Part shown: in pieces, positions 3,429 through 55,694 of the stretch
Numbering within the stretch: the stretch's first letter is position 1
Layout: the number at the start of each line of letters is the position of its first letter
NCBI GenBank assembly: GCA_964617625.1
Contig: CAZTZL010000001.1
Coordinates: 9,783 to 73,782, forward strand
Direction: 5' to 3'
Origin: an uncultured bacterium
Lineage (GTDB): Bacteria > Zhuqueibacterota > QNDG01 > DSAB01
DNA length: 64,000 bases
Translations under genes and position numbers: made by a program
The notes under the pieces: generated by a model
The model's input: only the letters and a program-made list of their open reading frames with translations
Databases searched by the model: none
Told to the model about the DNA's origin: nothing

Positions 3429-3471
3429 TTATTCTCCGTTGAAAATCCAATCGTTTAAAGGGTATCCATTG

Positions 3472-4391: not shown

Positions 4392-4429
4392 TGAGGTGTC
4401 CGGTTCACTCTATATTTAAAATCAATTGT

Positions 4430-10113: not shown

Positions 10114-10455
10114 GTATGTCCTTTTATTTTGTAAATCTTAAGATTCAACAATACTAACCTGATTTGGTTCCGAATTGTAATTTATTTTAAAGATTTAGTT
10201 TACGATATTTTTCGCACTTTGTCAAGTGAGATAAAGCGCTTTTTAAAAGTGATAGGCGTATTGTTTTTGACGATCTTAAAATGAATTTTTAAAGGTTGAT
10301 CTTCATCCCGACAAGTTGAGGTTCGTTTTTAAACTGAGTGGTGCTAAAAGGTGATGCCCGAATTATATTCAACTGTTTTGGAGTGAGTAAAAAAATCACC
10401 CTGATTATTCGGAATAGTTATTGATATAAATATCGGACTCATTCAATGTCAAGTT

Positions 10456-12516
10456 TTAAAAAAATTGTCTGGGCTGCAATTTTTGTCTTGGTTTTCCACC
10501 CAGCCGGATTCCTTTCAGATAACACTGCCTGGCTTTTTCTTTTTGATTTAAAATGGTATAAAGGCATGACATGTCAATAAAAATATCGCCTTTTCTGGGA
10601 TCATATTTGGATAATTGATGCAGATGTTGAAGCGCTTTCGTGTACGATTTCTGTTTATATGCAAGTGTATATAGGATACGATGTGCCTCAATTGCATTTG
10701 CATTTAATGTTAATGCCTGTTTGGCCAGCTGGGAGGCTTGCTTGTAAAATCCTCCTGTGGCAAGGACGTAAGCCGTGTTACTCGCATGCAAAGCTCCCTC
10801 GAAAGTAAAGTCATCCAATTGAAAAGCGTATTGGAACGATTTAAGCGACTCTTGATAATAATGGGTCTTCAATGGATTTTTATCCATGACAAACTGTCGA
10901 TACCGATAAAGGCAGGCGATTCCTCTTTTTGACCATAGTCTTGCCAGGCTAAGTCGATCAATCCGGCTTAAATTATTCAAAACAAGTTTTTCAGGGGAAA
11001 ATTGTCGACAGAATTCATCATCCAAACGTCGTGATATAGAGGAGTCTTTTGGAGAAGTAAGGAAGGGACCGGCAATTTGATAATTCAGTTTAGATAACAA
11101 TGTATTGAGATAGGGTACCTGTATTTCAATCAGTATATGATCATTTTTGGAAAAATTGATTTTATTGAAATCATCAACATTATTTTTGAATCCAAGTATT
11201 GAAAAATCTTTGTCGTTGTTTCCGGTAAAAATCAGATAAAATAAATGATAAGCGATTTCATCTGAAACAGGATAAATTAGATAATGATCCGGGATATTGG
11301 ATAAAAGATATGAGGAGAATACTTCTGATGTGTTCTTTTTTGAAATATCCATATGAGGAATATGCAGGATGATAAGAAGGAATACAGGAATCAGAATGAA
11401 AGGTCTCATCCAATTTTTTAATAGTAAAATTAGTTGACCTGTTCCGGCAGTAAGTGGAGCAATAAAAAGGATGAGGCACGGGACAAAATAGGCATCCATA
11501 TTCACCATTTGTTTGAAATTGAGATTCATTGGAATTAAAATACCGAATAGGATTGTGCACAACAAAGCTGCCAATAATAGCTGGTAAATTGAAGATTTGT
11601 TTTTTGATTTCAATAATTTCCAGCCGGCAATTATTGAAAGAAGAATACCTGGTATCCCAAGATTTAAAATTATGATCTTGAATGTCTGGACGATCGAAAT
11701 GCCAATTGCGTAACTGCCTGCCGAATCCTGAGATTTATATTTTGCTCTTGTCAGATAGTTAAAAAACGTTTTAAACGAATGAATATCATATCTGGCCAAT
11801 ATGGGTGAAAGCGCGGATCGTATCGGTAAGTAAGCAAAAATTGAAAGACCTAAAAAAACAAAAAGCAGACAAAGGAAAAAATCTCGTTTAATAAAAGAAG
11901 GACGGGAGAGTAATCTTTTTAAAGTTAGTATTGGAAAAATTAATATAACAACAATGTAATATCCCAGTGTGAGTGCAATTCCAAAAAAATATGCTGAAGC
12001 ATATAGGTGAGATATTTTTTCTCCTCGATCCAAATACGCATTGAAGAAATAGATAGAAAGAGCGATAAAAAAAGCCTGGAAATTATAGACCTCAGTAAAT
12101 GTTGCATATGTCCAGACAGTGGAGGCGGTTCCATAAATTACAGTGACGATGAAAATGATTATTAGCCGTGATAATTTCGATATATGCACCGTAATAAATT
12201 GACTCGAGATCATTGCCACAATAATGCATGTGAGTGAGGAGAAGACTGCGGTCAGATGATTCATCGCCGAAGCAGGATTTGAAGGATTCAATAAAATTGC
12301 GATTCGTCCAACAAGCCAAAAAAGGGGATGTCCATATGCATGTCCAATGCCGAGCGAGTTCGAAACAGTGATAAATTCACCGGAATCTCCCCAGTAAATA
12401 CCTTTTGCATTTGTTAATTCATACAGGATGAATATAAATAGGCCACAAAACAGTGGAAAGAGTGAAGCGAAAAAATTATTAAATCGGTTATGTTTATTCA
12501 AAAAAGTTGTTTCCAT
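10456..12516 (-). CDS. DUF2723/TMEM260-like GT-C fold membrane glycosyltransferase with C-terminal TPR domain
   Basis: 686 aa. The N-terminal signature YWGDSGEFITVSNSLGIGHAYGHPLFWLVGRI matches the DUF2723 consensus (DSGEl...lGiaHPPGYPLf). At least 10 predicted TM helices follow. The C-terminal ~150 aa form TPR repeats. Confidence 0.65.
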   Translation of the reverse strand: METTFLNKHNRFNNFFASLFPLFCGLFIFILYELTNAKGIYWGDSGEFITVSNSLGIGHAYGHPLFWLVGRIAILLNPSNPASAMNHLTAVFSSLTCIIVAMISSQFITVHISKLSRLIIIFIVTVIYGTASTVWTYATFTEVYNFQAFFIALSIYFFNAYLDRGEKISHLYASAYFFGIALTLGYYIVVILIFPILTLKRLLSRPSFIKRDFFLCLLFVFLGLSIFAYLPIRSALSPILARYDIHSFKTFFNYLTRAKYKSQDSAGSYAIGISIVQTFKIIILNLGIPGILLSIIAGWKLLKSKNKSSIYQLLLAALLCTILFGILIPMNLNFKQMVNMDAYFVPCLILFIAPLTAGTGQLILLLKNWMRPFILIPVFLLIILHIPHMDISKKNTSEVFSSYLLSNIPDHYLIYPVSDEIAYHLFYLIFTGNNDKDFSILGFKNNVDDFNKINFSKNDHILIEIQVPYLNTLLSKLNYQIAGPFLTSPKDSSISRRLDDEFCRQFSPEKLVLNNLSRIDRLSLARLWSKRGIACLYRYRQFVMDKNPLKTHYYQESLKSFQYAFQLDDFTFEGALHASNTAYVLATGGFYKQASQLAKQALTLNANAIEAHRILYTLAYKQKSYTKALQHLHQLSKYDPRKGDIFIDMSCLYTILNQKEKARQCYLKGIRLGGKPRQKLQPRQFF

Positions 12517-12904
12517 TTTATAATTCTTTTATTTCCGATATAGGAATTCTGGCAGAAGATAAAACCGGGGATTTCCTAAATATTCTTTGCTAATTTAATT
12601 TATTAAAAAATAAAAGTCAAGAAAGGTTTCACGTCCCCTTTATAAACGCTCCCCATTTTTTAAGGAAAAAAGGTTCAATGAGACGGTAGGAAAGTTTTTC
12701 CTTAAACTTAAAACTTACGATAAACATCAAATTTATAACTAATATAAATACAATATCTTATATAATACTGTTTCTATATGGTATGCAGTTTGCATAAAAG
12801 CTTATCGAGCAATAGTAACCATAAGAGTTAACGATCCAATTTATAGTGGACGAAAGGATAAAAAATTGGTGAATTTGTTTTTGATTATGCCAAAGGGGAT
12901 ATCG

Positions 12905-15900
12905 ATGCATAGACTAACACAATTCTTGAAACCAAGCGTTCGGATTTTATCAATCCTGATTATTTTCTTTATCCCTGTCTTGCTGCACAGTGCATCAGTC
13001 TCAGTGTCCTGGAACAGTAACACAGAACCGGATTTGGCCGGGTATCAGGTTTATTACGGAACGCAATCCGGGAATTATGGTGTCGTCATTGATGTCGGTA
13101 ATGTCACAGAATATACGGTTAGTGGCCTTGAAGTAGGTAAATCCTACTATTTCGCCGTTACTGCCTATGATGAAAACTGGAACGAAAGCGATTATTCTGA
13201 TGAAGTGATCTATCAAGTTGCCGACACCCAAAAACCCATGATTACATCTGTCTCCTGTTTACAAAGTGACAGAATTCGAGTTGTGTTTAATGAGCCGGTC
13301 GAAAAATTATCTGCCGAGCTGATTACCAATTATCGTATCAATACGGGAACCCAGGTTATTATACAAAATGCGGAACTTGGCACAGACCTGATTACCGTGA
13401 CGCTGACAACAACCCAGCACAGCAATGGCACCTATATGCTTACTGTCAACAATGTCCGGGACAGGGCAACTGTTCCCAATACAATGGATCAGTCTCAGAT
13501 AAATTACACATGGCAGGGAACAGATCAGACTCCGCCCGCAATAGTCAGTGCAGAATTGAAAACACGCGATTTTCTTTTGGTTACATTCAGCGAGCCATTG
13601 AATCAAACCACTGCACTTCAGACGTCAAACTATAATATTTCTCCATCAATCGCGATCAATTTTCTCAGTATCGATCAAACTTTTACAAAAATAACGATTA
13701 ATACAGCCGAACACGCTTCCGGTTTGGAATATACATTGACTGTAAATAATGTCCAGGATGGGGCGGGAAATACGATTACCGCCAACAGTCAGAAAAAATA
13801 TCAATGGATTTCGGAGGATACAACTCCGCCCGATTTAATTGCTGCAAGACTCAACAATATTACCTCGCTGGAGCTGGAATTCAGTGAACCGCTTGATCAA
13901 ACCTCAGCACAAAATGTACAAAATTATTCGATCTCTCCCTCCGTAAATATAACACAAGTCAGTCTCGATGTTACCCGGACAATTGTTACTTTGACCACTG
14001 CGGCACATTCGGGGGGAACATATGTCGTTACAGTCAGTAATATCGGCGATGATGAAAATCCTCCAAATGTAATTTCGACACCTCAGCACAAGGAATATGT
14101 CTATACGCCTCCAGACCAGACACCTCCCACGCTCGTGGCTGCAGAGGTAACGAGCGGCAATTTGTTGCGTGTCACATTTAGTGAGCCGTTGGATGACGTC
14201 AGTTCGACAAACATCAATAATTATACAATTAGTCCCAGTCTTTCAATAGAGAGTGCTTCCCTGGATGTGACGAGAAAGATTGTTCTTCTTGTCACAACGC
14301 AATCCCATGTTGCCGGTACTTATCGTCTTACAGTTAGCAATATCAAGGATCGGGCCACGACTCCCAACACGATACAGGCTAATTCCTTTGTTGATTATTC
14401 GTACAATCCTCCGGATATCACTCCTCCCGTATTGACGAAAGCGGTCCTGCACGGAGCCAATGTACTGGAACTTTTCTTCAGCGAATCTCTGGATCGCGTT
14501 TCCAGTGAAACTGAAAGTAATTATCTGATTACGCCCTCTGTTGCAATACAGAATGCCACTCTTGTGGGAGATTCATTGAACCGGGTATATCTGGCTACCG
14601 GAAATCATCAGCAGGGAGTCTCCTATACAATCAAAGTTACCAATGTTTTTGACAAGGCGACTGTACCCAATGTGATTGTTTCAGGAACAAAAGGATACGA
14701 TTTACCATCAATGGATACGACCCCTCCTGCGCTCGTGAATGTAAAATTGCAGGGTGACAGTTTTCTCGAACTGGAGTTCAGCGAACCCCTGGATCAAGTT
14801 TCTGCTACTAATATTGGATGCTATGCCATTACTCCAGCTATTTCTATAACCGAAGCGAGCATAGACAACTCATTAAAAAAAGTTTTTCTCAAGACCGGAA
14901 CACATGTACATGGCATGCAATATACACTCACAGTGAACAATGTTAAGGATATTGCCACTCCGGCAAACAGCATCCAGCAAAATACGCAGCGAACCTATAC
15001 CTGTGGCGAAACCGACAACATTCCTCCCAGACTGATTATGGCAGACCTTCATGGAACGCAGATGCTTGAACTTTCTTTTAGCGAAGCCCTGGATGCGAGT
15101 TCGGCACTGGATAAAAGCCATTATAGCATTTCAAACGGAATAGCAGTTTACAATGTGAGTATCAGCCAATCCCAGATGCAGGTCTTTCTTGAAACATCGG
15201 TTCATCAGCAGGGAAGCTATACAGTTACTGTGACCGGAGTTAAAGATCTTTCTGTAACACCCAATGTGATTGGTTCCGAGAATAAATATGTTTATACATA
15301 TACACCCGTCGATACGGAAAGACCGGTTCTTCTTAGTGTTGAATTGTTAAATACAACCATGTTGAAATTGAGATTCAGCGAAGCGCTGAACCGTATTTCC
15401 GCTGAAGATACATCCAATTATTCTATTAACAACGGTGTGAAAGTGGTGCGGGCTATTCTTGATGTCGAAATGACAAATGTAATTCTGCAGACCACGGTTC
15501 ATCAAATCGGCAGCTTTACCCTTCTTGTGAAAAATATTCAAGATGGATCCCAGGCCAAGAATGTGATTTTGCCAAATACATACATTCAGTATGATTATCT
15601 GCCTGAGGACAACAGTTCTCCGAAAATAGTTTCCAGTATTCTTCATACGGATCAGATGCTGGTAGTCACTTTTAGTGAACCTCTCGATTCGGCAAGTGCA
15701 CAGGAAAAGAGCAACTATTTCATCAATAACAATATTCAGATTCATGATATTTTTCTTTCTTCATCCGAAGGACAGGTTGTTCTTGAAACATCTCCGCATG
15801 CTGCAGGAGAATATGAATTAACTGTTAATGGTATTAAAGATTGCTCTGTAAACAAGAATCCCATTGCAGCCTATACAAAGCAGAAGTATACATGGAGTCC

Positions 15901-18256
15901 TATCGATACAATCAGTCCTGCGTTAATATCGGCAAAACTGCAGACCAATCAATTACTGGAATTGACTTTCAGTGAACCTGTGGGGGATACCGAAGCCCGG
16001 AACAAAGAGAATTATGTGATTGATCCACCGGTAAATATCCTCATGGCTACACTGGATGCCAATTTTAAGACTGTATGGCTGACCACGGCTGCTCACGAGG
16101 CGCAGACATACACAATCACTGTGAGTAATATCAAGGACAGGGCATTTAATCCAAATACCATTAAACTGTCCAATAATAGTTACAATTATACATACATGCC
16201 TCCTGACACAGTTGCACCGGAATTGGTTACCGCAAAATTGCAAACTTATATGTCTTTGTCAATTGTCTTTAATGAGCCGGTATCGAGATCGAGTGCTGAG
16301 AATGCAACGAATTATACGATAACACCGAACATCAAAGTAAACAATGCCTATCTGAGAGCGTCGTTGACAGAAGTTCTTTTGGAGACTGACGCACATCAGA
16401 GTGGGATTACTTACACAATCTCGGTCGCTGGAATCACGGACCGGGCCCCCATACCCAATATATTGAAACAGCCGATAGAAAAAACGTATACATACTCACC
16501 TCCGGATACAACCAGACCAAAATTGCTTTCTGTCAAACTTCAGGGTGCAAATGCATTGGAATTGAGATTTGACGAAGCGCTGGAAAAGACCTCCGCACAG
16601 GACAGAAAAAATTATTATATCGAGCCGGGTGTTGAAGTTTATGAAGCCGTGTTGGATCCGAGCAACACTAAAAATGTATATTTATCCACAAGCGATCACC
16701 GCCCGAGTGTCAGTTACAGTATTAATGTGCAGCATATCAAAGACAGAGCAGCTGTACCCAATGTCATCAGTCCGGATACATGGTTTGTTTATACAATGCA
16801 GAGTTCAGGCAGTTCGGCAGACAACACACCTCCTGTCCTGGCAAGAGTGGAAATCTTGTCACCGATTCTTGTGGATTTGGTTTTTTCTGAACAACTTGAG
16901 AAAACAAGCGCTGAAAATAAAAACAATTATACTATCAACGACAGTATTGTGGTTAATTCGGCCCAGCTTGATTCAAATGGAGTACGTGTTCATTTGTCGA
17001 CTTCGCCTCATCGAAGAGAAAAAGCCTATCAGATTCATGTGTCCAATATTTCTGACAGGGCCTTACACCCAAACATTATGGCTTCGGGTAACGGTGTGAA
17101 TTATCTTCTGTCCGAATGGGCATCTGTGAGCGGTATCAGCCAAACTGGATATCAATTCAGCACATTCAGATCAGGAGAAGCCGGATACGTAGATCGGAAT
17201 TATACAATTGATCAGGCCCCCCAGGAGATTCAGGGTGCGATCCAGATTCTTACTGCAAATAATGACAAAGCCACAAAAGGGGAAAATTTTCTATCTTTTC
17301 AATTGCGTGGAGAGGCGACAATCTATGTCGCCTATGACAACAGTATTTCACAAACCCCCACATGGCTTCAGGAATGGACCGTCACAGGGAAGCAGGTGAT
17401 TGATTCACGATCCAAAGCCTATCATCTGTTCTCGGAGGAAATTACGGAAGGCCAGATTATTCTGGGTGCGAATTATGGAACAATGGATGATGATATGTAC
17501 CTCGTATTTATCGTTCCGCACAAAGGGAGCCGGGCAGTTTTGGCGAATCTGAATAAAAGCGCTTATCAGATCAATTATATCTCGGTGGGAGACGTCTACT
17601 ATATCGACAGAGATTATAGGCTTTCTTCGGTTCCGGATACACTGAAGCATCTGATGTGGATTCAAACTGCAAATGATGACAAAGTTAATCGGGATACGGA
17701 TTTCCTTCAATTTTATCTGAATCAAACCGCTGTGATCTATGTTGCATACGATGCGCAAATTGCTTCGTTGCCCAAATGGCTGATCGATTGGGAATTGATG
17801 GATGAACAGATTGTGGATTCTCGAGGAAAAAAATTTGATGTTCTCTATAAACAGTATGAAGAAGGAGAAGTGACCCTGGGTGGAAACTGCGGTTCGGTCG
17901 ATGACAACATGTATCTCGTTATCATTCGTCCTCTGGGCAATGGTGATGGTTCGGAATATGAGGGCCTGCTTCCAGGTAAATTCGATCTCGGACAAAATTA
18001 TCCCAATCCATTCAATCCGGAAACATCCATTGAATTTGCAGTACAAAAGCCGGGTCGTGTGACGTTGACGGTATACAATATTTTAGGGCAGAGGGTTCGG
18101 GTGTTGGTCGATGAGTATTTCCCGGGAGCGGCTCAACATACGGCGGTGTGGGACGGAAAGAATGAATGCGGCAATATCGTGGCAAGCGGTGTTTATATTT
18201 ATCGCGTTCAGCAAAATCAATTTGCAAAAACAAAACGAATGTTATTCTTGAGATAA
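12905..18256 (+). CDS. Giant secreted cell-surface protein: Fn3 + 13 tandem Ig-like (SbsA/Big_5-like) repeats + 2 paralogous ~140-aa domains + T9SS C-terminal sorting domain
   Basis: The ATG at 12905 follows the SD aaagggga and starts the signal peptide MHRLTQFLKPSVRILSILIIFFIPVLLHSASVSV. The track ORF begins upstream at 12866. An Fn3-like module is at ~12995-13219. Thirteen ~97-aa repeats, each opening with D-T-x-P-P, span ~13223-17120. Two related domains (YVDRNYTIDQAP...ANNDKATKG... and YYIDRDYRLSSVP...ANDDKVNRD...) span ~17128-17930. The C-terminus GQNYPNPFNPETSIEF...VYNILGQRV...AVWDGKNECGNIVASGVYIYRV...KRMLFLR matches the T9SS Por_Secre_tail type. Confidence 0.85.
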   Translation: MHRLTQFLKPSVRILSILIIFFIPVLLHSASVSVSWNSNTEPDLAGYQVYYGTQSGNYGVVIDVGNVTEYTVSGLEVGKSYYFAVTAYDENWNESDYSDEVIYQVADTQKPMITSVSCLQSDRIRVVFNEPVEKLSAELITNYRINTGTQVIIQNAELGTDLITVTLTTTQHSNGTYMLTVNNVRDRATVPNTMDQSQINYTWQGTDQTPPAIVSAELKTRDFLLVTFSEPLNQTTALQTSNYNISPSIAINFLSIDQTFTKITINTAEHASGLEYTLTVNNVQDGAGNTITANSQKKYQWISEDTTPPDLIAARLNNITSLELEFSEPLDQTSAQNVQNYSISPSVNITQVSLDVTRTIVTLTTAAHSGGTYVVTVSNIGDDENPPNVISTPQHKEYVYTPPDQTPPTLVAAEVTSGNLLRVTFSEPLDDVSSTNINNYTISPSLSIESASLDVTRKIVLLVTTQSHVAGTYRLTVSNIKDRATTPNTIQANSFVDYSYNPPDITPPVLTKAVLHGANVLELFFSESLDRVSSETESNYLITPSVAIQNATLVGDSLNRVYLATGNHQQGVSYTIKVTNVFDKATVPNVIVSGTKGYDLPSMDTTPPALVNVKLQGDSFLELEFSEPLDQVSATNIGCYAITPAISITEASIDNSLKKVFLKTGTHVHGMQYTLTVNNVKDIATPANSIQQNTQRTYTCGETDNIPPRLIMADLHGTQMLELSFSEALDASSALDKSHYSISNGIAVYNVSISQSQMQVFLETSVHQQGSYTVTVTGVKDLSVTPNVIGSENKYVYTYTPVDTERPVLLSVELLNTTMLKLRFSEALNRISAEDTSNYSINNGVKVVRAILDVEMTNVILQTTVHQIGSFTLLVKNIQDGSQAKNVILPNTYIQYDYLPEDNSSPKIVSSILHTDQMLVVTFSEPLDSASAQEKSNYFINNNIQIHDIFLSSSEGQVVLETSPHAAGEYELTVNGIKDCSVNKNPIAAYTKQKYTWSPIDTISPALISAKLQTNQLLELTFSEPVGDTEARNKENYVIDPPVNILMATLDANFKTVWLTTAAHEAQTYTITVSNIKDRAFNPNTIKLSNNSYNYTYMPPDTVAPELVTAKLQTYMSLSIVFNEPVSRSSAENATNYTITPNIKVNNAYLRASLTEVLLETDAHQSGITYTISVAGITDRAPIPNILKQPIEKTYTYSPPDTTRPKLLSVKLQGANALELRFDEALEKTSAQDRKNYYIEPGVEVYEAVLDPSNTKNVYLSTSDHRPSVSYSINVQHIKDRAAVPNVISPDTWFVYTMQSSGSSADNTPPVLARVEILSPILVDLVFSEQLEKTSAENKNNYTINDSIVVNSAQLDSNGVRVHLSTSPHRREKAYQIHVSNISDRALHPNIMASGNGVNYLLSEWASVSGISQTGYQFSTFRSGEAGYVDRNYTIDQAPQEIQGAIQILTANNDKATKGENFLSFQLRGEATIYVAYDNSISQTPTWLQEWTVTGKQVIDSRSKAYHLFSEEITEGQIILGANYGTMDDDMYLVFIVPHKGSRAVLANLNKSAYQINYISVGDVYYIDRDYRLSSVPDTLKHLMWIQTANDDKVNRDTDFLQFYLNQTAVIYVAYDAQIASLPKWLIDWELMDEQIVDSRGKKFDVLYKQYEEGEVTLGGNCGSVDDNMYLVIIRPLGNGDGSEYEGLLPGKFDLGQNYPNPFNPETSIEFAVQKPGRVTLTVYNILGQRVRVLVDEYFPGAAQHTAVWDGKNECGNIVASGVYIYRVQQNQFAKTKRMLFLR

Positions 18257-18261: not shown

Positions 18262-19032
18262 ATGATGGTAATGGAAATAATCGTAGTCGGTACATTGGGT
18301 TTGATTTTAGGAAGTTTTTTCAATGTACTAATTTACAGAATGCCAAAAGGTCTTTCAATTGTTCGACCTGGATCGCATTGCACCTCGTGTGGTCAGCCTG
18401 TAAAATTCTATGACAATATTCCGGTGTTAAGTTATATTTTGCTTAAAGGGCGATGCCGATCCTGTCATGCATCTTTTTCCTGGCGTTATCCAGCAGTTGA
18501 ATTGTTGACTGCATTTTGTCTTGTATCTGTGTTTTTAAAATACGGGTGGTCCAATCAAACCATTGCTTATGGTGTGCTTGTCCTATTTTTAATTCCAATC
18601 AGTTTTATCGATATCGATAATGGATTGATATTAAACAGATTGACGATTCCCGGTTTCATTTTGGGGATGGTTCTCATGATAGGGTTACAAATTGAAATAT
18701 GGTATATGGTTATAGCGGGGGCGCTGTTTGGAGGATTTTTGATTTTGGCGATTTCTTTTCTCGGGAAATTGTTATTTCGCAAGGAAAGCATGGGAATGGG
18801 GGATTTGAAACTCCTTGTTATGATTGGTGTTTACGTTGGATTTCCGAAAACAGCTCTGTGTTTGTTTTATGGAGTTTTTATAGCAGCACTGTTTATTTTT
18901 TACGGAATAATTTTTAAAAAAGTACGTATTGGTGACACAATCCCATTTGGTCCGTTTATTGCAATAGGCACTCTCGTGCATTTGCTGTTTGGTGAGCTCA
19001 TTATTAGCAAATATTTGGAGCTTTTTAGATAA
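18262..19032 (+). CDS. pilD: Prepilin peptidase (A24 family)
   Basis: It carries the Zn-binding tetracysteine CTSCGQP...CRSC and two Asp boxes (IDIDNGLILN and GMGDLKLL), with a polytopic membrane profile. A likely start ATG at 18262 lies just after the upstream stop at 18254-18256. The track ORF starts at 18166 inside the previous gene. Confidence 0.85.
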   Translation: MMVMEIIVVGTLGLILGSFFNVLIYRMPKGLSIVRPGSHCTSCGQPVKFYDNIPVLSYILLKGRCRSCHASFSWRYPAVELLTAFCLVSVFLKYGWSNQTIAYGVLVLFLIPISFIDIDNGLILNRLTIPGFILGMVLMIGLQIEIWYMVIAGALFGGFLILAISFLGKLLFRKESMGMGDLKLLVMIGVYVGFPKTALCLFYGVFIAALFIFYGIIFKKVRIGDTIPFGPFIAIGTLVHLLFGELIISKYLELFR

Positions 19033-19040: not shown

Positions 19041-19511
19041 GTGCAGGGAGGCTGGAGGGTCAGCCCAGAGATGGAAATTCAGGATGAAGTAAAAGATGCT
19101 CTTGTAACAAATACTCTACAAAGTGATGTTTTGGAAGGCGACGGAAGAAAGCAAATACTGGTTGTGGATGATGATCCTTTGATTGTTAAAATTCTTCGAG
19201 AACCTTTGGAAAGAGAGGGGTACAGTGTTCGAGTAGCTTCTCACGGTCTGGAAGCTCTCCAGGAAGTAAAAACTAATCGTCCGGATTTGATTATTCTCGA
19301 TATTTTAATGCCGATGCTCGATGGATTTAAAGTGGCTCGATTATTAAAATTTGATAAACGTTTCAAAGATATTCCAATCATTGTATTGACTTCACGTGCG
19401 ACAGAAGGAGAACGGAAAATGGGGCAACAGGTAGGGGCGAATGAATTCCTCTATAAGCCATTCCGTTATCCTCAGGTTTTGGACGTGGTAAGAAGGTATT
19501 TGGATGCCTGA
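19041..19511 (+). CDS. Single-domain response regulator (CheY/PilH-like receiver)
   Basis: Receiver motifs include ILVVDDDP, the phospho-accepting D in IILDILMP and LTSRAT...K. No output domain is present. It sits between pilD and pilB. Confidence 0.8.
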   Translation: MQGGWRVSPEMEIQDEVKDALVTNTLQSDVLEGDGRKQILVVDDDPLIVKILREPLEREGYSVRVASHGLEALQEVKTNRPDLIILDILMPMLDGFKVARLLKFDKRFKDIPIIVLTSRATEGERKMGQQVGANEFLYKPFRYPQVLDVVRRYLDA

Positions 19512-21282
19512 TCATGTAAAAACAGTCGCGAAGGTGACAACTCAAAAAAGCGATAACGATCGTGCATTGGCCCGTGCGTTGGTGGAGCGAAAAATTCTGA
19601 CGCTTCAGCAGGCAAAAGCCATTCTTGGGCAGATCAAAAACGGGAAAGCCCATATGTCATTCGAAGAACTTCTTCTAGAATCCGAATTGGCCACAGAAGA
19701 GGTTATTTTAGAAACGAAAGCATCCATACTGCATGTACCCTATATTGATCTGAAAAATTATGAAATAGATCCCGAAGTGCTCGAACTGATTCCCGGGAAT
19801 ATTGCACGTCAGTTCAATTTCTTCCCATTATTCAAGATCGACAGCACGCTTCTTTTGGCGATGATAGATCCCAAAGATGTGAAGGCGATTGACAAAGTAA
19901 CGCGGATCACCCAGCTTGAAATTTCTCCAGCACTTTCTTCCAGAGAAGCAGTCGAATCGGCCATTGATCGATATTACGGAAAGACCTCTGAACAATCGGT
20001 GAAAGTCTCGAACGAAGAAATGCAGGATATTTTAGAAGGCATTGAATCGGAAGAGACCAAAAGTGAAGAAGCTCATGAATCCATTCAGGATCTGGAGAAG
20101 CTGGCCGAAGAAGCTCCTGTCGTTAAAATGGCAAATATGATATTGACTCAAGCAATCATCGAAGGGGCTTCGGATATCCATATCAATCCTGAAGAAGATG
20201 AGCTCCGTGTTCGGTTTCGTCAGGACGGAATTTTACGTGAGACATTTCAACTGCCCAAAAACTTGCAGTCAGCAATTATTTCCAGAATAAAAATTCTGTC
20301 CAATCTGGATATAGCGGAACACCGGATACCGCAGGACGGGCAATTGCGTATAAAATTGAAAGACGGAAGACAGATTGATATCCGAGTTTCCACACTTCCT
20401 TCGGTGAACGGCGAGAATCTTGTACTTAGAGTCCTGGATAAAAGCGCGGCTTTGATGAGCCTCGACAATCTTGGTTATGAAGAAGATGTTTTGAACGGGA
20501 TCAAATCGCTTCTCAGCAATTCTTATGGCATCATCCTGGTGACCGGACCTACCGGAAGCGGTAAAACAACGACTCTATACGCCGCTTTGAATCATCTTGA
20601 TGCCATTTCACAGAACATTATCACGCTCGAAGATCCCGTCGAGTTTCGATTACCCCGAATCCGGCAATCCCAGGTCAATGTAAAAGCGGGAATGACTTTT
20701 GCCAAGGGATTACGGGCAATTTTGCGTCAGGACCCGGATATTGTTCTGGTAGGTGAAATTCGCGATGCAGAGACGGCTAATATTGCTGTTCAGGCAGCGC
20801 TGACCGGACATTTGGTTCTTTCTACTCTGCATACCAATGATGCTGCGGGCGGTATTACCCGATTGGCAGAAATGGAAATCGAGCCTTTTCTTGTTTCATC
20901 GGCCGTGCTTGGCATTATGGCCCAGCGTCTTGTCAGGAAAATTTGTCCGGAATGTAAAACAGAGTACAAGCCGAATTATCAGATTCCGAAAGATGTTTTC
21001 GAAAGTTTTGGCATCGAACATACGGATTCGATCAAATTTTTTCATGGAACCGGGTGCAAACATTGCCGCGATACCGGATATCAGGGACGAATGGCAATTA
21101 TGGAAGTCATTCAAATGAGTGAAAAAATTCGAGCGTGTGTATTGAAAGATGCACCTGCAGATCAAATTCGAAAGGTGGCCATGGAGGAGGGAATGCGGCC
21201 GCTGGCACATGATGGATGGGCAAAAGTGTTCAAAGGAATTACAACTGTTGATGAAGTGCTAAGAGTAACGAATATTGTATAA
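19504..21282 (+). CDS. pilB: Type IV pilus assembly ATPase PilB (GspE family)
   Basis: 592 aa with an N-terminal T2SE_N-like domain and the Walker A motif GPTGSGKTTT. The tetracysteine Zn motif CPECK...GCKHC is present. It overlaps the preceding gene by 8 nt. Confidence 0.9.
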   Translation: MPDHVKTVAKVTTQKSDNDRALARALVERKILTLQQAKAILGQIKNGKAHMSFEELLLESELATEEVILETKASILHVPYIDLKNYEIDPEVLELIPGNIARQFNFFPLFKIDSTLLLAMIDPKDVKAIDKVTRITQLEISPALSSREAVESAIDRYYGKTSEQSVKVSNEEMQDILEGIESEETKSEEAHESIQDLEKLAEEAPVVKMANMILTQAIIEGASDIHINPEEDELRVRFRQDGILRETFQLPKNLQSAIISRIKILSNLDIAEHRIPQDGQLRIKLKDGRQIDIRVSTLPSVNGENLVLRVLDKSAALMSLDNLGYEEDVLNGIKSLLSNSYGIILVTGPTGSGKTTTLYAALNHLDAISQNIITLEDPVEFRLPRIRQSQVNVKAGMTFAKGLRAILRQDPDIVLVGEIRDAETANIAVQAALTGHLVLSTLHTNDAAGGITRLAEMEIEPFLVSSAVLGIMAQRLVRKICPECKTEYKPNYQIPKDVFESFGIEHTDSIKFFHGTGCKHCRDTGYQGRMAIMEVIQMSEKIRACVLKDAPADQIRKVAMEEGMRPLAHDGWAKVFKGITTVDEVLRVTNIV

Positions 21283-21306
21283 ACAGAACAAAGGATAAAC
21301 CGAACA

Positions 21307-22512
21307 ATGCCATCTTATGAATACAAAGCTGTCACACCGACAGGAGAAATTGTTAACGAAGTACTGGAAGCAGCCAACGAACAGACCGTTTCCAAAGAAA
21401 TTTACCATAAGGGATACCGGCCGGTTTCGATAAAAATGCGAAAAGAGGGAAAGTCGGAGAGCAGCGGACTTTTTACAAAAAAAATCAAAGCCGATGAAAT
21501 CATTCTTTTCACACGTGAACTGGTTACGCTTCTGCGTGCCGGCGTTCCCATGCTCACCGCACTGGAAGCGCTCAGCTCCCAGAGCAGCAAAATGATGGGG
21601 GATGTGCTGAATCAGGTTTATGTCGATGTCATGTCGGGTAAAAGTTTTTCCCAGGCGCTGGACAAACATCCCAAGGTTTTTTCGAAACTTTATGTAAACT
21701 CGGTGTATGCCGGCGAAATGAGTGGTGCCCTTGATGAGGTTCTGGAGCGAATGGCATCTGTATTGAAACATGATGAGGAAACCAGTAAAAAAGTAAAGTC
21801 GGCCATGAAGTATCCGATCTTTGTTCTCAGTGCGATGGTTGTCGCGTTTATTGTGATCATGGCGGTGGTTGTTCCCAAGTTTACTACGATTTTCGATAGT
21901 ATGAATATGGAACTGCCCCTGCCAACAAAGATGCTTCTGGGAACGAGTAATTTTATCAAAAGTAATGTGATCGCCATTTTTGTGGTTGTGGTAGGGGGTG
22001 TTATCGGAATGACTACGTTTGTCAAGACCAAGAAGGGACGGTTCTGGTGGGACGGTTTTATCATGAAAATTCCTCTCATCGGTCCTCTCGCCTCCAAGAG
22101 TTCCATGGCCCGTTTCACAAAAATGTTCGAGACGCTGAACCGAAGCGGCCTCCCTATTCTCCAGACACTCACGACGGTATCAACCGCGGTAGGCAACACG
22201 GTTATAGAAAAAAGTATCAGGAATGTGGCAGTTGGTGTTGAGAAAGGTGGAGGTATTGCCGGTTCCATGAAAAAATTCGATCTGTTTCCTCCAATGGTTA
22301 TTCGCATGATTTCAATCGGGGAACAGTCAGGTTCGCTGGACGATATGCTGAAAAGCATTGCGAACCATTATGACATGGAAGTGGAATATGCGATTAAAGG
22401 GTTGACTACGATGATCGAACCACTGCTCACTATCGTTATGGCCGCAGCGGTGACCGTCCTGGCACTTGGTATTTTTCTGCCCATGTGGGGTATGGTGGGA
22501 GTGCTGAAATGA
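21307..22512 (+). CDS. pilC: Type IV pilus inner-membrane platform protein PilC (GspF family)
   Basis: 401 aa with duplicated GspF domains and three TM segments. The N-terminus reads MPSYEYKAVTPTGEIVNEVLEAANEQ. Confidence 0.9.
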   Translation: MPSYEYKAVTPTGEIVNEVLEAANEQTVSKEIYHKGYRPVSIKMRKEGKSESSGLFTKKIKADEIILFTRELVTLLRAGVPMLTALEALSSQSSKMMGDVLNQVYVDVMSGKSFSQALDKHPKVFSKLYVNSVYAGEMSGALDEVLERMASVLKHDEETSKKVKSAMKYPIFVLSAMVVAFIVIMAVVVPKFTTIFDSMNMELPLPTKMLLGTSNFIKSNVIAIFVVVVGGVIGMTTFVKTKKGRFWWDGFIMKIPLIGPLASKSSMARFTKMFETLNRSGLPILQTLTTVSTAVGNTVIEKSIRNVAVGVEKGGGIAGSMKKFDLFPPMVIRMISIGEQSGSLDDMLKSIANHYDMEVEYAIKGLTTMIEPLLTIVMAAAVTVLALGIFLPMWGMVGVLK

Positions 22513-22680
22513 TCAGCTGATGGATAAACTTTTTTACAATACAGGAATTTGTAAAATATCAGAATGTAAAGAAAATACAGGAAGGTGGTGATAGTAAAAA
22601 TCGGTTAAACAAAGAAGGATGAGTGTTTAAAGAAGGAAATTTTATACAACTTGCAAATTCTCATGAAAGGAGAAGAAATC

Positions 22681-23019
22681 ATGAAAACACGTTCCCAAAG
22701 AGGCTTTACACTGGTCGAACTGATCGTTGTGATCGTCATCATCGGCATTCTGGCCGCAGTGGCTATTCCAAAGTTTATCAGTGCGACGGGTGCAGCGAAA
22801 GTGGCTGCCTGCCGGTCCAATCAGATGAACATCGAAACAGCCGTTAAATTCAAGCTGGCCGTGGATACGGCAGCAGATCCTGCAGCCACACCGGAAACCA
22901 GTCTTGCTAATCTTGTACCGGCCTATCTGCCTACAACGCCGGCTTGTCCGGAGAGCGGGACCTATTCACTGGGTTCCGATGGCGCCTGTTCCTGTTCGGT
23001 TGCAGCACATTCAAGATAA
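22681..23019 (+). CDS. pilA: Type IVa major pilin
   Basis: A class III signal peptide with an 8-aa leader reads MKTRSQRG|FTLVELIVVIVIIGILAAVAIP, with Glu at +5. The SD aaaggagaag lies 5 nt upstream. The C-terminal region is Cys-rich (4 Cys). The track ORF is longer, starting at 22651. Confidence 0.85.
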   Translation: MKTRSQRGFTLVELIVVIVIIGILAAVAIPKFISATGAAKVAACRSNQMNIETAVKFKLAVDTAADPAATPETSLANLVPAYLPTTPACPESGTYSLGSDGACSCSVAAHSR

Positions 23020-23080
23020 TATCTTGAAATCAGAAAAATGACCTGGAATGGGTTTTTACATTCCGGGTTGTCTGGATCAT

Positions 23081-23130
23081 TTTACGGAGAGGGTGAGATG
23101 CAGAACCGCCCTCTCCGTAAAGATTTTTTG
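23081..23130 (+). terminator. Rho-independent terminator downstream of pilA
   Basis: TTTACGGAGAGGG-(15 nt loop)-CCCTCTCCGTAAA forms a 13-bp perfect stem. It is followed by GATTTTTTGG. Confidence 0.8.
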
Positions 23131-23186
23131 GAGTTATCCAATTTAGGAAATGAGTAAAGTGAATTGGTCTTTCAAGGAGAGTATCG

Positions 23187-23738
23187 ATGAAAATCAGTAA
23201 GGAAAAAAAGTCTCTCCGTTCAAGAAAAGGATTTACACTCATTGAATTGATTGTCGTGATTACGGCTGTGGCCTTTTTGACCGGTGTGGTCGGGGTGAAT
23301 GTGCAGCATACAAATCAGCAGACAACGATATTCAATGCAGCCAATAAAGCACTTGCCGATTTGCGATATGCGGAAGAAGTGGCCATGACCACACACCGCA
23401 GGGTCGATTTCATTGTTAATCAGGGTGCGAATAAGTACGAAGTAAAATACCACTCTGATGGAACATATGTCAAATCATCGACTTCGGATGATGACGACCT
23501 GATCGTACAACTGGGTTCAGGAATATCCAGCGGTGTTACGATTACGTCTTCGGCAACCGGCAATACATTGTCGTTTATGGAATGGGGCGAACCGGCTTTG
23601 AATGGAGCCACTTTTACAGGCGAACGGTCTGTAGCGCGTTTTAACTCGCATATGCATCTCATTATTGTAGAATCGGGATATGCCTATCTGGCTGAAGAAG
23701 TCGGGGGTTCAGGATGCGGATTTACAATATGCCATTAA
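23187..23738 (+). CDS. Minor pilin / pseudopilin (FimT/GspH-like)
   Basis: A prepilin leader reads MKISKEKKSLRSRKG|FTLIELIVVITAVAFLTGVV, with Glu at +5. Confidence 0.7.
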   Translation: MKISKEKKSLRSRKGFTLIELIVVITAVAFLTGVVGVNVQHTNQQTTIFNAANKALADLRYAEEVAMTTHRRVDFIVNQGANKYEVKYHSDGTYVKSSTSDDDDLIVQLGSGISSGVTITSSATGNTLSFMEWGEPALNGATFTGERSVARFNSHMHLIIVESGYAYLAEEVGGSGCGFTICH

Positions 23739-24157
23739 AAAAACAGATTTGTCAATGTGCCGGCGAGAAGGGTTTTTCACTTGTCGAAGTGATTGTCATT
23801 ATTCTGATTCTCAGTATTGCGATTATTCCTTTGAGTCGGCTTGCAATCGGCAACATAGATGCCGGTCGTACTTATAGTCTGATTTCGCGGGGCACATTAT
23901 ACGCACAGGAAATCATGGAGAGAATCATTGCCGATTATGTTGCAGAATTGGAAGACAGCCAGGGGTACGACTGGGTAAAAAGCAACTGGCCCGGTACTGT
24001 TTCCGGCTCCCCCACAGGATTCACAGGCAATGTCGATATTTCAAGTGAAACAACGGTCAACAGCGTGACGTATGTCACGGTTACGGTTACTGTGAGCGCG
24101 AACGATATGCCGGATATCGTTCTGTCCACATGGCTGGTTGATCATGTCTTTGAATAA
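23729..24157 (+). CDS. Minor pilin (PilV-like)
   Basis: A prepilin leader reads MPLKKQICQCAGEKG|FSLVEVIVIILILSIAIIPL. The track ORF starts at 23714. It overlaps the preceding gene. Confidence 0.65.
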   Translation: MPLKKQICQCAGEKGFSLVEVIVIILILSIAIIPLSRLAIGNIDAGRTYSLISRGTLYAQEIMERIIADYVAELEDSQGYDWVKSNWPGTVSGSPTGFTGNVDISSETTVNSVTYVTVTVTVSANDMPDIVLSTWLVDHVFE

Positions 24158-24173
24158 CACAGCGGAGAGGATC

Positions 24174-24686
24174 ATGCCATCCGAATTAAAAAACAAGCAA
24201 TCCGGCTACACGCTGATCGAACTGGTTGTCGTTCTTCTTTTGACCGGTATTCTGATTGCAGCCGTTACGCCTTTTGTTGCCACCAATGTGGAGGCCTATA
24301 TGAAAATGAGGGTGGCAAAAAATATTGCACAGGGAGCGCGTGTGGGACTGCTTCGCATGACTGAAGAATTAAAAAGAGCGACCACTATCACTCGCTGCCG
24401 TTCGGACGAAATTGGATTTCGTTTTCAACCCCCAACTGGGTCCAATCGCGCTGTTACATACAGTGAATATCATGGCGCTCTCATGCGGGATGACGGCGGG
24501 GGCGATCAGCCGATGATTTACCCGATACAGAGTTTTAATCTCACGTATTATGATTCCAACGACAATACGACGTCTACTAAATCATATGTCAGGCGTATTC
24601 GAATAAAAATGGATGTAGGTCCCCCAGAATTCATGACCAGTATCCAAACCCAGGTTACTTTGCGAAATATATTTACAGGTAGTTAA
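24174..24686 (+). CDS. Minor pilin (PilW/GspJ-like)
   Basis: A prepilin leader reads MPSELKNKQSG|YTLIELVVVLLLTGILIAAV. The track ORF starts at 24138. Confidence 0.65.
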   Translation: MPSELKNKQSGYTLIELVVVLLLTGILIAAVTPFVATNVEAYMKMRVAKNIAQGARVGLLRMTEELKRATTITRCRSDEIGFRFQPPTGSNRAVTYSEYHGALMRDDGGGDQPMIYPIQSFNLTYYDSNDNTTSTKSYVRRIRIKMDVGPPEFMTSIQTQVTLRNIFTGS

Positions 24687-24891
24687 TAGTAAACAGGTGA
24701 ATGTATTTGGATTCAATATAAGTTTGGTTTTTAATATTCACTACTACACCGAACCTTGTAAAGAAACTGTTCCCATATTGAATTACCATTTCATTATTTG
24801 ATAGATCCGGAATCACATTTAAGATGGCAGGCCAATATTGAAATTGGAAATATTTAGAAGGTTAACTTTTTTAGCATAGAAGGAGGCGGCA

Positions 24892-25821
24892 ATGAAGAAG
24901 CAGACACTAAAAAGGCTGAGAAAGGAAGAGGGCTTTTTCTCCGCTTTCGTGCTGGTTTTTCTGGTGACACTGGGTCTCATGGGGATTGGAGCCTCCATGT
25001 TGTTACAGAGTGAAAGCAAGAATGTCATTAATCAAATGAACTCCGTAAGAGCCGATTATTTGATGGAAAGCGCCGCTTTTTACAGCACGGCCGCCCTCTC
25101 GGCAGGAACACTGACGAGCGACACAAGTTTTACAATCGGAAGTATCGATGTGGAAGTGGATACATTTTATGACGCCGGGACAATGATCATGGAAGTAACG
25201 GTGACTATTGATGAAGGACGTACCAGAACAATTCTGTTTGAAATGAAAGAAAATCCGATCTGGAGAAGGTCGATTTTCGTATCTGGATCTATCGACGCCA
25301 ATGTCACTACGAAAGATTCCAATAATGTTGTTGATGACGACTTGAAGGTCGCCAATAGGAGCCCCATGCCGCAAGTGAACAATTCGACATTAACCAGTAT
25401 GGCCGCTTCTCAGGGCCACGAAAAAGGCGGGCCGTGGACTGCAACAGATGATTATCCAAGTACCAGTTTTTACCGGTCTGGAAATACACCCAATGTCACA
25501 CATGTTTATGGAGATATGTATGTGAATGCCAATATAGATATCCACGGCATTTTTATAGTGGATGGGAATGTATATCTGGACAGAAGAGCACATGTTCAAG
25601 CCGTGCTCTATCTTCCCAATTCAGGTACAAAGGTAGAGGCTAACAGTAGTAGTTCAAATCGATTTGATCCGAATGTTCTGGGCGGCATTTACGGATTCGG
25701 GGAAGTGACTGTAGTCAGTTCCAAAACATTATATGTCCGGCATGAACCGGAATGGATGCGTGTTTTTTCACAATATGTGAATGGCGGTGATGGTACAAAA
25801 ATTGCACATTGGTCTTATTAG
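24892..25821 (+). CDS. PilX-like pilus assembly protein (non-canonical pseudopilin)
   Basis: A basic leader and hydrophobic helix read MKKQTLKRLRKEEG|FFSAFVLVFLVTLGLMGIGASML. 309 aa. No Glu at +5. Position and length match PilX/GspK-like. Confidence 0.45.
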   Translation: MKKQTLKRLRKEEGFFSAFVLVFLVTLGLMGIGASMLLQSESKNVINQMNSVRADYLMESAAFYSTAALSAGTLTSDTSFTIGSIDVEVDTFYDAGTMIMEVTVTIDEGRTRTILFEMKENPIWRRSIFVSGSIDANVTTKDSNNVVDDDLKVANRSPMPQVNNSTLTSMAASQGHEKGGPWTATDDYPSTSFYRSGNTPNVTHVYGDMYVNANIDIHGIFIVDGNVYLDRRAHVQAVLYLPNSGTKVEANSSSSNRFDPNVLGGIYGFGEVTVVSSKTLYVRHEPEWMRVFSQYVNGGDGTKIAHWSY

Positions 25822-25849
25822 TGAAATTTAGGTTAAAACTATTGCAAAA

Positions 25850-27589: not shown

Positions 27590-27594
27590 CGAAT

Positions 27595-28194: not shown

Positions 28195-28233
28195 TCAATA
28201 AATTGATATTGATAATGGCCTACGGAGGACTTT

Positions 28234-32136: not shown

Positions 32137-32157
32137 AAATCCTAATGGAGTTTTGAA

Positions 32158-32922: not shown

Positions 32923-33040
32923 CATCCAATTTATATTGTATGTGGAACAAAAATTCATCAATAAAGATCGATCTTGTCCATTCTGGACCGAAGATTATGA
33001 TAAAGTGGATTGAATTGTTTGTGAAATGAGGTTTTAATTA

Positions 33041-35760: not shown

Positions 35761-35763
35761 AAT

Positions 35764-44986: not shown

Positions 44987-45049
44987 TAGGAGCACGTATG
45001 GTTTTTTAAATTATTAAAATGAAGATGCAAATAAAGAGAGGGTTACGGT

Positions 45050-45580: not shown

Positions 45581-45637
45581 GAAAACAGGGATTACTGTAA
45601 AATTGAATTATATTGTAAAAAAAACGAAAGGTGAATC

Positions 45638-46081: not shown

Positions 46082-46125
46082 TCTTTTGAGCCGTTTTCAT
46101 AACACAGTAAGGATTGGAGTCTGTT

Positions 46126-47733: not shown

Positions 47734-47818
47734 CCAAGTCTATATCGGTGTACTGATGCTTCGATCGGAGTGAATAGGATTACAAATTTAATATTAAAAA
47801 ATATACTGGAGAATTGAA

Positions 47819-55693: not shown

Positions 55694-55694
55694 G

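Follow-up and report, generated by a model that had tools for sequence, protein, structure and literature searches.

A surface protein of 13 Ig-like units encoded at the head of a type IV pilus operon in an uncultured bacterium

The window, a stretch of 64,000 nucleotides from an uncultured bacterium, encodes a surface protein of 1,783 amino acids in the first position of a type IV pilus operon, directly upstream of pilD. This adjacency is the key conserved feature of the gene (12905..18256; plus strand, as are all features below unless stated otherwise). The original prediction mentioned the location upstream of pilD, but missed its conservation. The number of Ig-like units is constant among orthologs. 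With somewhat better than even confidence, the protein is regarded as a fixed-length, glycan-binding surface fibril or adhesin of a KSB1-related lineage in the FCB group, co-expressed with type IV pili and acting together with them. The invariable lead position suggests that a T9SS-type cargo and a pilus machine may work together, hinting at a so far unrecognised partnership of the surface protein with type IV pili. Operon position by itself is no proof of a functional link to pili. No published description of a T9SS-type cargo coupled to a pilus machine was found, and pili, secretion systems and adhesins are not mentioned in the KSB1 genomics papers.

The prepilin peptidase gene pilD (18263..19032; domains A24_N_bact and Peptidase_A24) starts 6 nt past the stop codon of the surface-protein gene (TAA, 18254-18256), and no terminator is present in the gap. 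The remaining pilus cluster on the same strand (19071..36867) opens with a receiver-only response regulator. It comprises pilB (19504-21282), pilC (21307-22512), pilins (22663-24686), pilM (25850-27589), pilO (27595-28194), a gene for a Big_1 protein of 1,300 amino acids (28234-32136), the secretin gene pilQ (33502-35760) and pilT for the retraction ATPase (35764-36867). A GspH-like pseudopilin is also encoded in the cluster, and a Che-type chemosensory cluster is located downstream of the pilus genes. PilB, PilC, PilD, PilM, PilO, PilQ, PilT and N-methyl pilins in the window identify a type IVa pilus. The surface-protein gene is located 3-16 nt upstream of pilD, followed by the response regulator, pilB and pilC, in seven of seven loci with downstream sequence (window, L004, L005, L006, L008, L030 and L031). 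The upstream neighbours change from locus to locus, while the pilD junction is kept. Gene spacing and the missing terminator suggest a co-transcription of the surface-protein gene with the pil genes.

The surface protein is encoded by one uninterrupted reading frame. The start codon ATG at 12905 is backed by the N-termini of orthologs. An alternative TTG at 12866 would yield 1,796 amino acids and is used in the public record P0309; an exact-sequence look-up with the ATG version gave 0 public matches. The protein (~184 kDa) is acidic, rich in Ser, Thr and Asn, and rod-like in overall shape. A putative Sec-type signal peptide (12905..12994) was read by eye as MHRLTQFLKPSVR-ILSILIIFFIPVLL-HSA↓S, with a basic n-region, the hydrophobic core ILSILIIFFIPVLL and a cleavage-type site HSA↓S. 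Equivalent n-, h- and c-regions are present in all orthologs. An N-terminal fibronectin type III domain follows (12995..13222, residues 29-98), scoring 25.2 bits in the whole protein and 32.7 bits in the isolated N-terminus (Pfam fn3, cutoff 25). The domain layout proposed from the sequence, with 13 units, two tail domains and a C-terminal sorting domain (CTD), was confirmed, and the models Big_5, fn3 and TIGR04183 all matched above their cutoffs. Rfam and tRNA scans in and around the gene gave no matches.

The array of 13 Big_5 or S-layer-type Ig-like units (13223..17110) consists of units of about 99 amino acids. They start at 13223, 13523, 13817, 14114, 14414, 14714, 15014, 15311, 15608, 15905, 16205, 16505 and 16820, corresponding to residues 107, 207, 305, 404, 504, 604, 704, 803, 902, 1001, 1101, 1201 and 1306, respectively. 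Pfam Big_5 (PF13205) scored 110.9 bits (cutoff 23.6), the unit has an Ig-like beta-sandwich fold, and the consensus motifs described earlier, LELxFSEPLD..SA.N..NY.I.P and YTLTVNNVKD.A..PN, were found in the units. Pairwise identity between units is 24-52% on the protein level (mean 37%) and 39-56% in codon-threaded DNA. Tandem Repeats Finder detected no DNA-level repeat over the gene. Exactly 13 units, two tail domains and a CTD are present in 58 of 58 full-length orthologs, which are sequence clusters of 42-100% identity, and ortholog matrices are diagonal-dominant, showing position-wise orthology of the units. MAGs with orthologs include CAZIAH01, JAUCQC01 and DSAP01. The array had been considered old, and these data support that age more strongly. 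Copy-number variation, for which a count of units in orthologs had been proposed, is absent. A recent slippage expansion or copy-number change is ruled out by the lack of a DNA repeat, the diagonal-dominant matrices and the constant count. Strong purifying selection maintains the architecture of 13 units, two tail domains and one CTD, with a dN/dS of 0.08 for the coding sequence in comparison to the L005 ortholog. Tandem-Ig surface proteins are commonly regarded as flexible stalks of variable length. A domain count that is constant in at least 58 clusters down to 42% identity points to a role dependent on length.

The closest solved relatives of the Ig unit are the S-layer proteins SbsC, SbsB, Sap and EA1, so that the S-layer likeness originally suggested holds for the repeat unit, and it is limited to this unit. 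The S-layer proteins of Geobacillus and Bacillus (SbsC, SbsB, SbsA, Sap, EA1) have Ig domains of the same Big_5 or SbsA_Ig type. They belong to Gram-positive hosts, carry SLH or SCWP-binding anchors and contain 6-9 heterogeneous domains, whereas the surface protein comes from a diderm host, and its 13 homologous units are capped by fn3 and followed by lectin-like modules and a T9SS-type CTD. Neither SLH nor any other anchoring family matched the surface protein at E<=0.1. The S-layer kinship of the Ig unit, together with the acidic, Ser/Thr/Asn-rich composition, the generic public annotations and the sister subfamilies in non-pilus contexts, would also fit a generic adhesin or S-layer-like coat protein exported by a T9SS. 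Such a protein would have no mechanistic tie to the pilus and would merely share a strong conserved promoter. It is a possible explanation of rather low probability: orthologs down to 42% identity retain the pilD junction, with upstream neighbours that vary, the form with 13 units and two tail domains occurs only in the pilus context among the loci examined, and a known S-layer anchoring domain was not detected. A true S-layer, a self-assembling two-dimensional lattice crossed by pili in which the fixed length reflects lattice geometry, is improbable. A linear chain of 13 domains with terminal lectin-like modules resembles a fibril more than a lattice subunit, and the 1-26 units of sister subfamilies are hard to fit to one lattice geometry. 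The Bacteroidota O-glycosylation sequon D[ST][AILMTV] is not enriched at the linkers, with 9 occurrences versus 7.5±2.6 in shuffled sequences.

Two tail domains of about 140 amino acids, lectin-like modules of the beta-sandwich type, follow the array: domain A (17111..17533, residues 1403-1543; YVDRNY...TANNDK...VAYD...LGAN...MYLV) and domain B (17534..17941, residues 1544-1679; YIDRDY...TANDDK...VAYD...LGGN...MYLV). Their proposed paralogy and the shared motifs Y(V/I)DR(N/D)Y and TAN(N/D)DK were verified; the domains are 38% identical over 133 amino acids (E=1e-38), and residues D25, D49, D73 and N118 are invariant. Domain B is the ancestral copy and the most constrained region of the protein (dN/dS 0.024). 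Domain A, 76% identical to its L005 counterpart, is a duplicate confined to the pilus-linked subfamily. The domains had been called novel. This is correct in so far as neither Pfam (E<=10, each copy) nor NCBIfam contains a matching model, but the domains are part of a large family (5,113 cluster representatives) in which a homolog, the C-terminal domain of the GH2 enzyme 6HPD, has a solved structure. Homologs occur as fusions with peptidases, dockerins, GH-type domains and a kinase. Fold matches are limited to accessory domains of 6HPD, a beta-glucuronidase, and of the GH138 enzyme BPa0997 (6HZE/6HZF), which has a domain of the same fold. In both enzymes a single domain is appended to a catalytic module, whereas the surface protein has two copies with no catalytic module beside them, placed ahead of a signal for secretion or anchoring. 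The tail domains match none of the described CBM families; carbohydrate binding, suggested earlier, is plausible. The ligand would most likely be a polysaccharide of an acidic surface or extracellular kind, since the sole solved relatives come from two enzymes whose names refer to uronic-acid substrates, and sister subfamilies adjoin Wza/Wzc capsule-export genes. The unnamed family is now delimited by more than 5,000 cluster representatives. A relative from a GH2 enzyme already has a crystal structure, and the family merits its own definition and ligand screening.

The protein ends with a T9SS type-A-like sorting domain (17999..18253, residues 1699-1783). This assignment of the original prediction is supported by TIGR04183 (33.0 bits, cutoff 23) and, for the isolated domain, by Pfam Por_Secre_tail (PF18962; 28.1 bits, in the whole protein 19.2 bits and below the cutoff of 27). 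The CTD is 56-62% identical in orthologs of 47-49% overall identity. The surface protein shares with T9SS type-A cargo of Bacteroidota a Sec signal peptide, a long extracellular region of multiple Ig domains, an FCB-group host and a C-terminal Ig-like sorting domain of ~85 amino acids that reaches the TIGR04183 cutoff. It differs in the host, a KSB1-related uncultured lineage outside the Bacteroidota with a predicted T9SS, the operonic association with type IV pilus genes, the strict count of 13 units and the pair of unnamed lectin-like modules that precede the CTD. In Tannerella forsythia, the S-layer proteins TfsA and TfsB are T9SS type-A CTD cargo. None of porK/L/M/N, sov (SprA), porU and porV is located within the 64-kb window, and T9SS secretion is predicted from the CTD and the FCB affiliation. 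In L003, a PorV/PorQ-family gene (161 bits, cutoff 90) was found at a distance of 8 kb from a member of the surface-protein family; the protein encoded upstream of it, considered as a candidate PorU, gave a match for its CTD only. A divergent FadL-like outer membrane protein was rejected as PorV (PorV_fam 22 bits, cutoff 90). It scores 249.3 for BamG, marginally below the cutoff of 250, and is considered BamG-like. BamG has been reported across the whole FCB group (PMC12611786), and T9SS only from FCB phyla (PMC11285876). The best reading of the host is a KSB1-related lineage of the FCB group. It is based on the BamG-like protein, SHMT neighbours from Marinimicrobia and Fidelibacter, surface-protein homologs labelled KSB1 or Calditrichaeota, and the placement of KSB1 inside the FCB group.

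The isolated CTD also matched FlgD_ig with 27.1 bits. This match and the GspH-like pseudopilin of the pilus cluster would accord with a surface protein that is a substrate or accessory of a pilus or T2SS-like machine and leaves the cell through the PilQ secretin, the CTD being an anchor or a FlgD-like module. Genes for substrates of type II secretion often adjoin those of the machinery, and the T9SS of the host is a prediction. This exit is very improbable: PilT, PilM and PilO are hallmarks of type IVa pili, the CTD exceeds the curated TIGR04183 cutoff and is common to many unrelated cargo-like proteins, and relatives adjoining EPS clusters have the same CTD without pil genes alongside.

A sigma54-type -24/-12 promoter-like element, TGGTAT-GCAGT-TTGCA (12779..12794), precedes the surface-protein gene, as judged from the consensus and from conservation. 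It agrees with GG-N10-GC and has flanks like TGGCAC-N5-TTGCW. TGGTAT-N5-TTGC is present upstream of all seven pilus-linked orthologs (window, L005, L006, L008, L030, L031 and L032), against a background of 0.05 per 400 nt. About 90 nt upstream of the element in the window, the palindrome AGGAAA-GTT-TTTCCT (12688..12702) is a candidate enhancer (UAS). GG[AC]AA-N3-TTTCC occurs four times in the 505 kb examined, each time upstream of an ortholog (window, L005, L006 and L008; four of seven loci) and 90-100 nt ahead of the -24/-12 element. A promoter and terminator consensus scan of the surface-protein region remained at chance level, and no rpoN or sigma54 activator gene is located in the 64-kb window. 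The type IV pilus genes of Pseudomonas and Myxococcus are sigma54/PilR-dependent, and their pili are coupled to EPS. The -24/-12-type element before pilus genes, the Che-type cluster and, on the family level, the EPS-export association are shared with these systems. Sigma54 acts there on the pilin gene, whereas in the window the element is located ahead of the surface-protein gene and pilD-pilB-pilC. We know of no Pseudomonas or Myxococcus pilus operon headed by a giant CTD-bearing Ig-repeat protein.

For a fibril or adhesin cooperating with pili, the following pathway is proposed. An enhancer-binding protein and sigma54 would switch on the surface protein jointly with the pilus machinery. After Sec export, the CTD would direct the protein across the outer membrane via a T9SS, and the C-terminus would probably be attached to the surface. 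Such an attachment would place the two tail modules beside the membrane and let the Ig stalk and the fn3 tip point outward. Membrane-proximal lectin-like modules are unusual for a substrate-binding adhesin. The tail modules would hold a polysaccharide, likely an acidic one. This binding and the co-induction with pili would make the protein a fibril or adhesin of fixed length that supports attachment or surface motility together with type IV pili. The lineage has no cultured members.

Distant relatives have one tail domain and 1-26 units and are located upstream of Wza/Wzc-type capsule-export clusters, with Wzi in two of three. In L003, in L033 and on the contig of P0347, related genes of the family are directly preceded by sigma54 activator genes. 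Tentatively, and with more doubt than conviction, a wider undescribed family may be delineated, in which fn3 is followed by n S-layer-type Ig units, a lectin-like module without a name and a CTD. Under sigma54 control, its members would be coupled genetically to pili where n=13 and two modules are present, and to Wza/Wzc export where n=1-26 and one module is present. In KSB1-related FCB bacteria, the 13-domain fibril would then be a built-in, co-transcribed part of the type IV pilus system and serve as a polysaccharide-binding spacer or ruler on the cell surface. If true, two envelope machines, T9SS and T4P, would be functionally linked. The ties of one protein family to pili on the one hand and capsule export on the other, with control of the sigma54 type, provide hypotheses that are testable in metatranscriptomes and by heterologous expression.

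A divergent upstream gene for a GT-C glycosyltransferase had been noted and is present in the window (minus strand, 10456-12516); it encodes a GT-C/TPR protein similar to the TMEM260-like O-mannosyltransferase (78.6 bits). It is not a conserved neighbour. The gene is carried on a genome-specific insertion of 2.4 kb (10190..12591, minus strand) outside the conserved unit, and tblastn gave no match in L004-L009. A role as dedicated glycosyltransferase of the Ig repeats was rejected as a conserved feature, the insertion being absent from L005, L006 and L008. Homology to L005 ends at 10189 and restarts at 12592, and the GC content of the insertion is 0.34 compared to ~0.42 nearby.

The surface-protein gene is a single long open reading frame on the + strand, starting at 12866 (TTG) or 12905 (ATG) and ending with TAA at 18254-18256. 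The ATG, chosen in the original prediction, is favoured by aligned ortholog N-termini and yields 1,783 aa; the public record of an identical protein (P0309) uses the TTG (1,796 aa). Inspection of the N-terminus identified a Sec-type signal peptide (MHRLTQFLKPSVR / ILSILIIFFIPVLL / HSA|S). An fn3 domain is located near it (Pfam, 32.7 bits in a scan of the isolated N-terminus). The 13 Ig-like units, each of about 99 aa, start at residues 107, 207, 305, 404, 504, 604, 704, 803, 902, 1001, 1101, 1201 and 1306. Between units, protein identity is 24-52% (mean 37%) and DNA identity 39-56%, and Tandem Repeats Finder detected no DNA-level tandem repeat in the gene. Two tail domains of about 140 aa, A (residues 1403-1543) and B (1544-1679), are 38% identical to each other (E=1e-38). 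The C-terminal sorting domain (CTD) matches TIGR04183 with 33.0 bits (curated cutoff 23) and, scanned alone, Pfam Por_Secre_tail with 28.1 bits (cutoff 27). The predicted architecture of 13 diverged units, two paralogous tail domains and a CTD was confirmed in every particular, including the fn3 and TIGR04183 matches for which profile searches had been proposed.

Ortholog loci were sought in species-representative genomes with the neighbouring PilB as probe. The recovered loci from uncultured MAGs had PilB identities of 94% (L005), 73% (L009), 69% (L006) and 66% (L007 and L008). A full-length ortholog lies directly upstream of pilD in L005 (1,783 aa, 84% identical), L006 (1,814 aa, 49%) and L008 (1,815 aa, 47%), each with 13 units and two tail domains. 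When units are compared with units, the diagonal of the identity matrix dominates in 13/13 rows for L005 and in 10/13 each for L006 and L008; hence, the units are orthologous position by position, with no homogenisation. Full-length protein and representative searches added further orthologs. Copy-number variation, proposed as a test in the original prediction, was not observed: all 58 full-length colinear orthologs, one sequence per 90% cluster with 42-100% identity, contain exactly 13 units, two tail domains and one CTD. The protein is under strong constraint, with a dN/dS against L005 of 0.08 for the whole protein and 0.024 for tail domain B, approximate values with dS near saturation. Unit 1 (13223-13522) is only 69% identical to that of L005 (pN 0.19; units 2-13, 83-94%), which suggests that recombination or faster change has acted locally, close to the distal end. 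Its divergence in distant orthologs is not unusual.

The gene lies directly upstream of pilD, as originally described. The pilD start follows 6 nt after the stop codon, no terminator-like structure was found between the two genes, and the junction measures 3-16 nt in six further loci (L004, L005, L006, L008, L030, L031), of which L030 and L031 hold the most divergent orthologs (42-44% identity). The upstream neighbours are a DNRLRE protein and a BamG-like outer membrane protein in the window, L005 and L006, an amino-acid kinase and DHDPS in L030, and NAD synthase in L031. With a constant pilD junction and variable upstream neighbours, the conserved property is the place at the head of the type IV pilus operon. 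A true S-layer protein is unlikely.

Downstream of pilD, the same strand encodes a receiver-only response regulator, pilB, pilC, four pilin-like genes, pilM and pilO, then a 1,300-aa Big_1/invasin-like protein, the secretin pilQ and pilT. The 1,300-aa protein (28234-32136, +) combines seven Big_1/Invasin_D3 repeats with a CarboxypepD_reg domain, is devoid of a T9SS CTD, and sits between pilO and pilQ, about where pilP would be expected. The PilM homolog (25850-27589, +) has 579 aa, far more than the roughly 350 covered by the PilM_2 match (residues 17-367). A PilM-PilN fusion is possible, because no separate pilN was recognised. A Che-type chemosensory system (43451-56819, +) downstream of the pilus genes comprises CheR-TPR, an MCP, a CheA-CheW-receiver fusion, CheB, a response regulator and a 1,270-aa GAF hybrid kinase that has four receiver domains. 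The system may be a Pil-Chp/Dif-like control module.

A sigma54-type element, TGGTAT-GCAGT-TTGCA (12779-12794), shows the GG-N10-GC geometry of sigma54 promoters. TGGTAT-N5-TTGC precedes 7/7 pilus-linked orthologs, given realistic start codons, against a background expectation of 0.05 per 400 nt. The palindrome AGGAAA-N3-TTTCCT (12688-12702) lies 90-100 nt upstream of the element in the window, L005, L006 and L008, its only occurrences in the 505 kb examined. Together, both elements have the geometry of an enhancer-dependent promoter, a function assigned from sequence. No rpoN or activator gene is present within the 64-kb window. The surface protein would be co-expressed with the pilus machinery in a sigma54-dependent manner. 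The main rival to the favoured reading, a generic surface coat or adhesin protein that shares no more than a promoter with the pil genes, appears possible, though less likely.

The divergent TMEM260-like (DUF2723, GT-C) protein O-mannosyltransferase gene with C-terminal TPRs (10456-12516, -), a neighbour stressed in the original prediction, proved to be part of a 2.4-kb low-GC insertion (about 10190-12591; GC 0.34, nearby about 0.42) that is missing at the syntenic site in L005, L006 and L008. Short TAATTTATT-like repeats flank it.

Neither tail-domain copy has a Pfam match, even at E<=10, and NCBIfam gave none in the region at E<=0.1. The domains are, however, no orphans, which qualifies the label "novel". 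With a profile built from 38 instances (A1), a search of 1.84 billion proteins retrieved 5,113 cluster representatives at E<=1e-3, of which 1,118 reached E<=1e-30. Up to seven copies occur per protein, fused to M28, C1 and M4 peptidases, dockerins, glycosidase-type domains, fn3 arrays or a Ser/Thr kinase, a range typical of a mobile binding module. Solved relatives are domains of two enzymes named after uronic-acid-containing substrates, the GH2 beta-glucuronidase 6HPD and the GH138 enzyme BPa0997 'targeting pectin rhamnogalacturonan II'. The residues that never vary, D25, D49, D73, N118, Y127 and P80, are acidic or polar. Carbohydrate binding by the tail domains is a reasonable, putative assignment, and the modules would bind glycan.

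Database labels assign surface-protein homologs to candidate division KSB1 or Calditrichaeota; KSB1 is Candidatus Zhuqueibacterota, a member of the FCB group. The window SHMT is closest to bacterial MAG proteins (72-79%), the first named neighbours being Marinimicrobia and Fidelibacter (70-71%). A FadL-family outer membrane protein (7711-8913, -), divergent to the surface-protein gene, scored 249.3 bits against NCBIfam BamG (cutoff 250). The adjacent DNRLRE/CBM96-domain protein (8947-10113, -) has a lipoprotein-like N-terminus (…AFVEC). This pair, kept in L005 and L006, could be BamG/BamH-like within an FCB-type BAM complex. Conservation of BamG throughout the FCB superphylum has been reported (PMC12611786), as has the restriction of T9SS genes to FCB phyla (PMC11285876). 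The 64-kb window contains no T9SS machinery genes; a PorV/PorQ-family gene (161 bits vs 90) lies 8 kb from a miniature family member. Affiliation, BamG score, phyletic restriction and the PorV/PorQ-family gene make T9SS export plausible. Export via the pilus secretin, encoded by pilQ in the same operon, is very improbable for this CTD-bearing protein. The protein would be exported by Sec, translocated across the outer membrane in a CTD-dependent manner and attached to the surface, as a fixed-length fibril or adhesin working with type IV pili. This whole reading, including sigma54-dependent co-expression and glycan binding, is given slightly better than even chances. In L008, a 551-aa protein (172-1827, +) with the same CTD type (TIGR04183, 35.4 bits) immediately precedes the ortholog; such proteins seem common in the lineage.

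At 30-37% identity, more distant homologs share the general layout (fn3, n units, a single tail domain, CTD), with n in classes of about 9, 11-12, 16, 20 and 25-26; the miniature (P0013, 445 aa) has a single unit. Unit number varies between subfamilies and is fixed within the pilus-linked one. The single tail domain is closer to B in 45/49 relatives, indicating that B is ancestral and A a duplication in the pilus-linked subfamily. Three relatives, of 9, 16 and 26 units, are each immediately followed by a capsule-export cluster with Wza-type Poly_export, Wzz/Wzc and a 2-epimerase; Wzi comes next for the 9- and 16-unit relatives. A sigma54 activator gene directly precedes two of these three and the miniature, at whose start TGGAAC-N5-TTGCA occurs. 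By its neighbourhoods, the whole family is tied either to pili or to the export of envelope polysaccharide.

CTD-bearing multi-Ig surface proteins are known as a kind. Public names of the orthologs are only 'Ig-like', 'fibronectin type III' or 'T9SS type A sorting domain-containing protein', and the two KSB1 genomics papers mention neither pilus nor secretion. New, as far as the searches reach, are the constant unit number, the obligatory place heading a pilus operon, the capsule-export sister link and the unnamed tail-domain family.

A conserved 'ABC ATPase - sigma54 activator' pair precedes relatives that have a single tail domain and between 1 and 26 units at L033 (5004-10807), L003 (6801-9294) and the P0347 contig; at the first and last of these loci, Wza/Wzc capsule-export genes come after the family gene. 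In L033, a 205-aa fn3+CTD mini-protein is also encoded between activator and family gene. Housekeeping genes upstream of the surface-protein gene comprise rnfG, rnfD, rnfC, nrdR, a dCMP-deaminase-like gene and glyA (459-5731, -), the Rnf complex suggesting anaerobic energy metabolism. The window has a single tRNA-Met (60787-60862).
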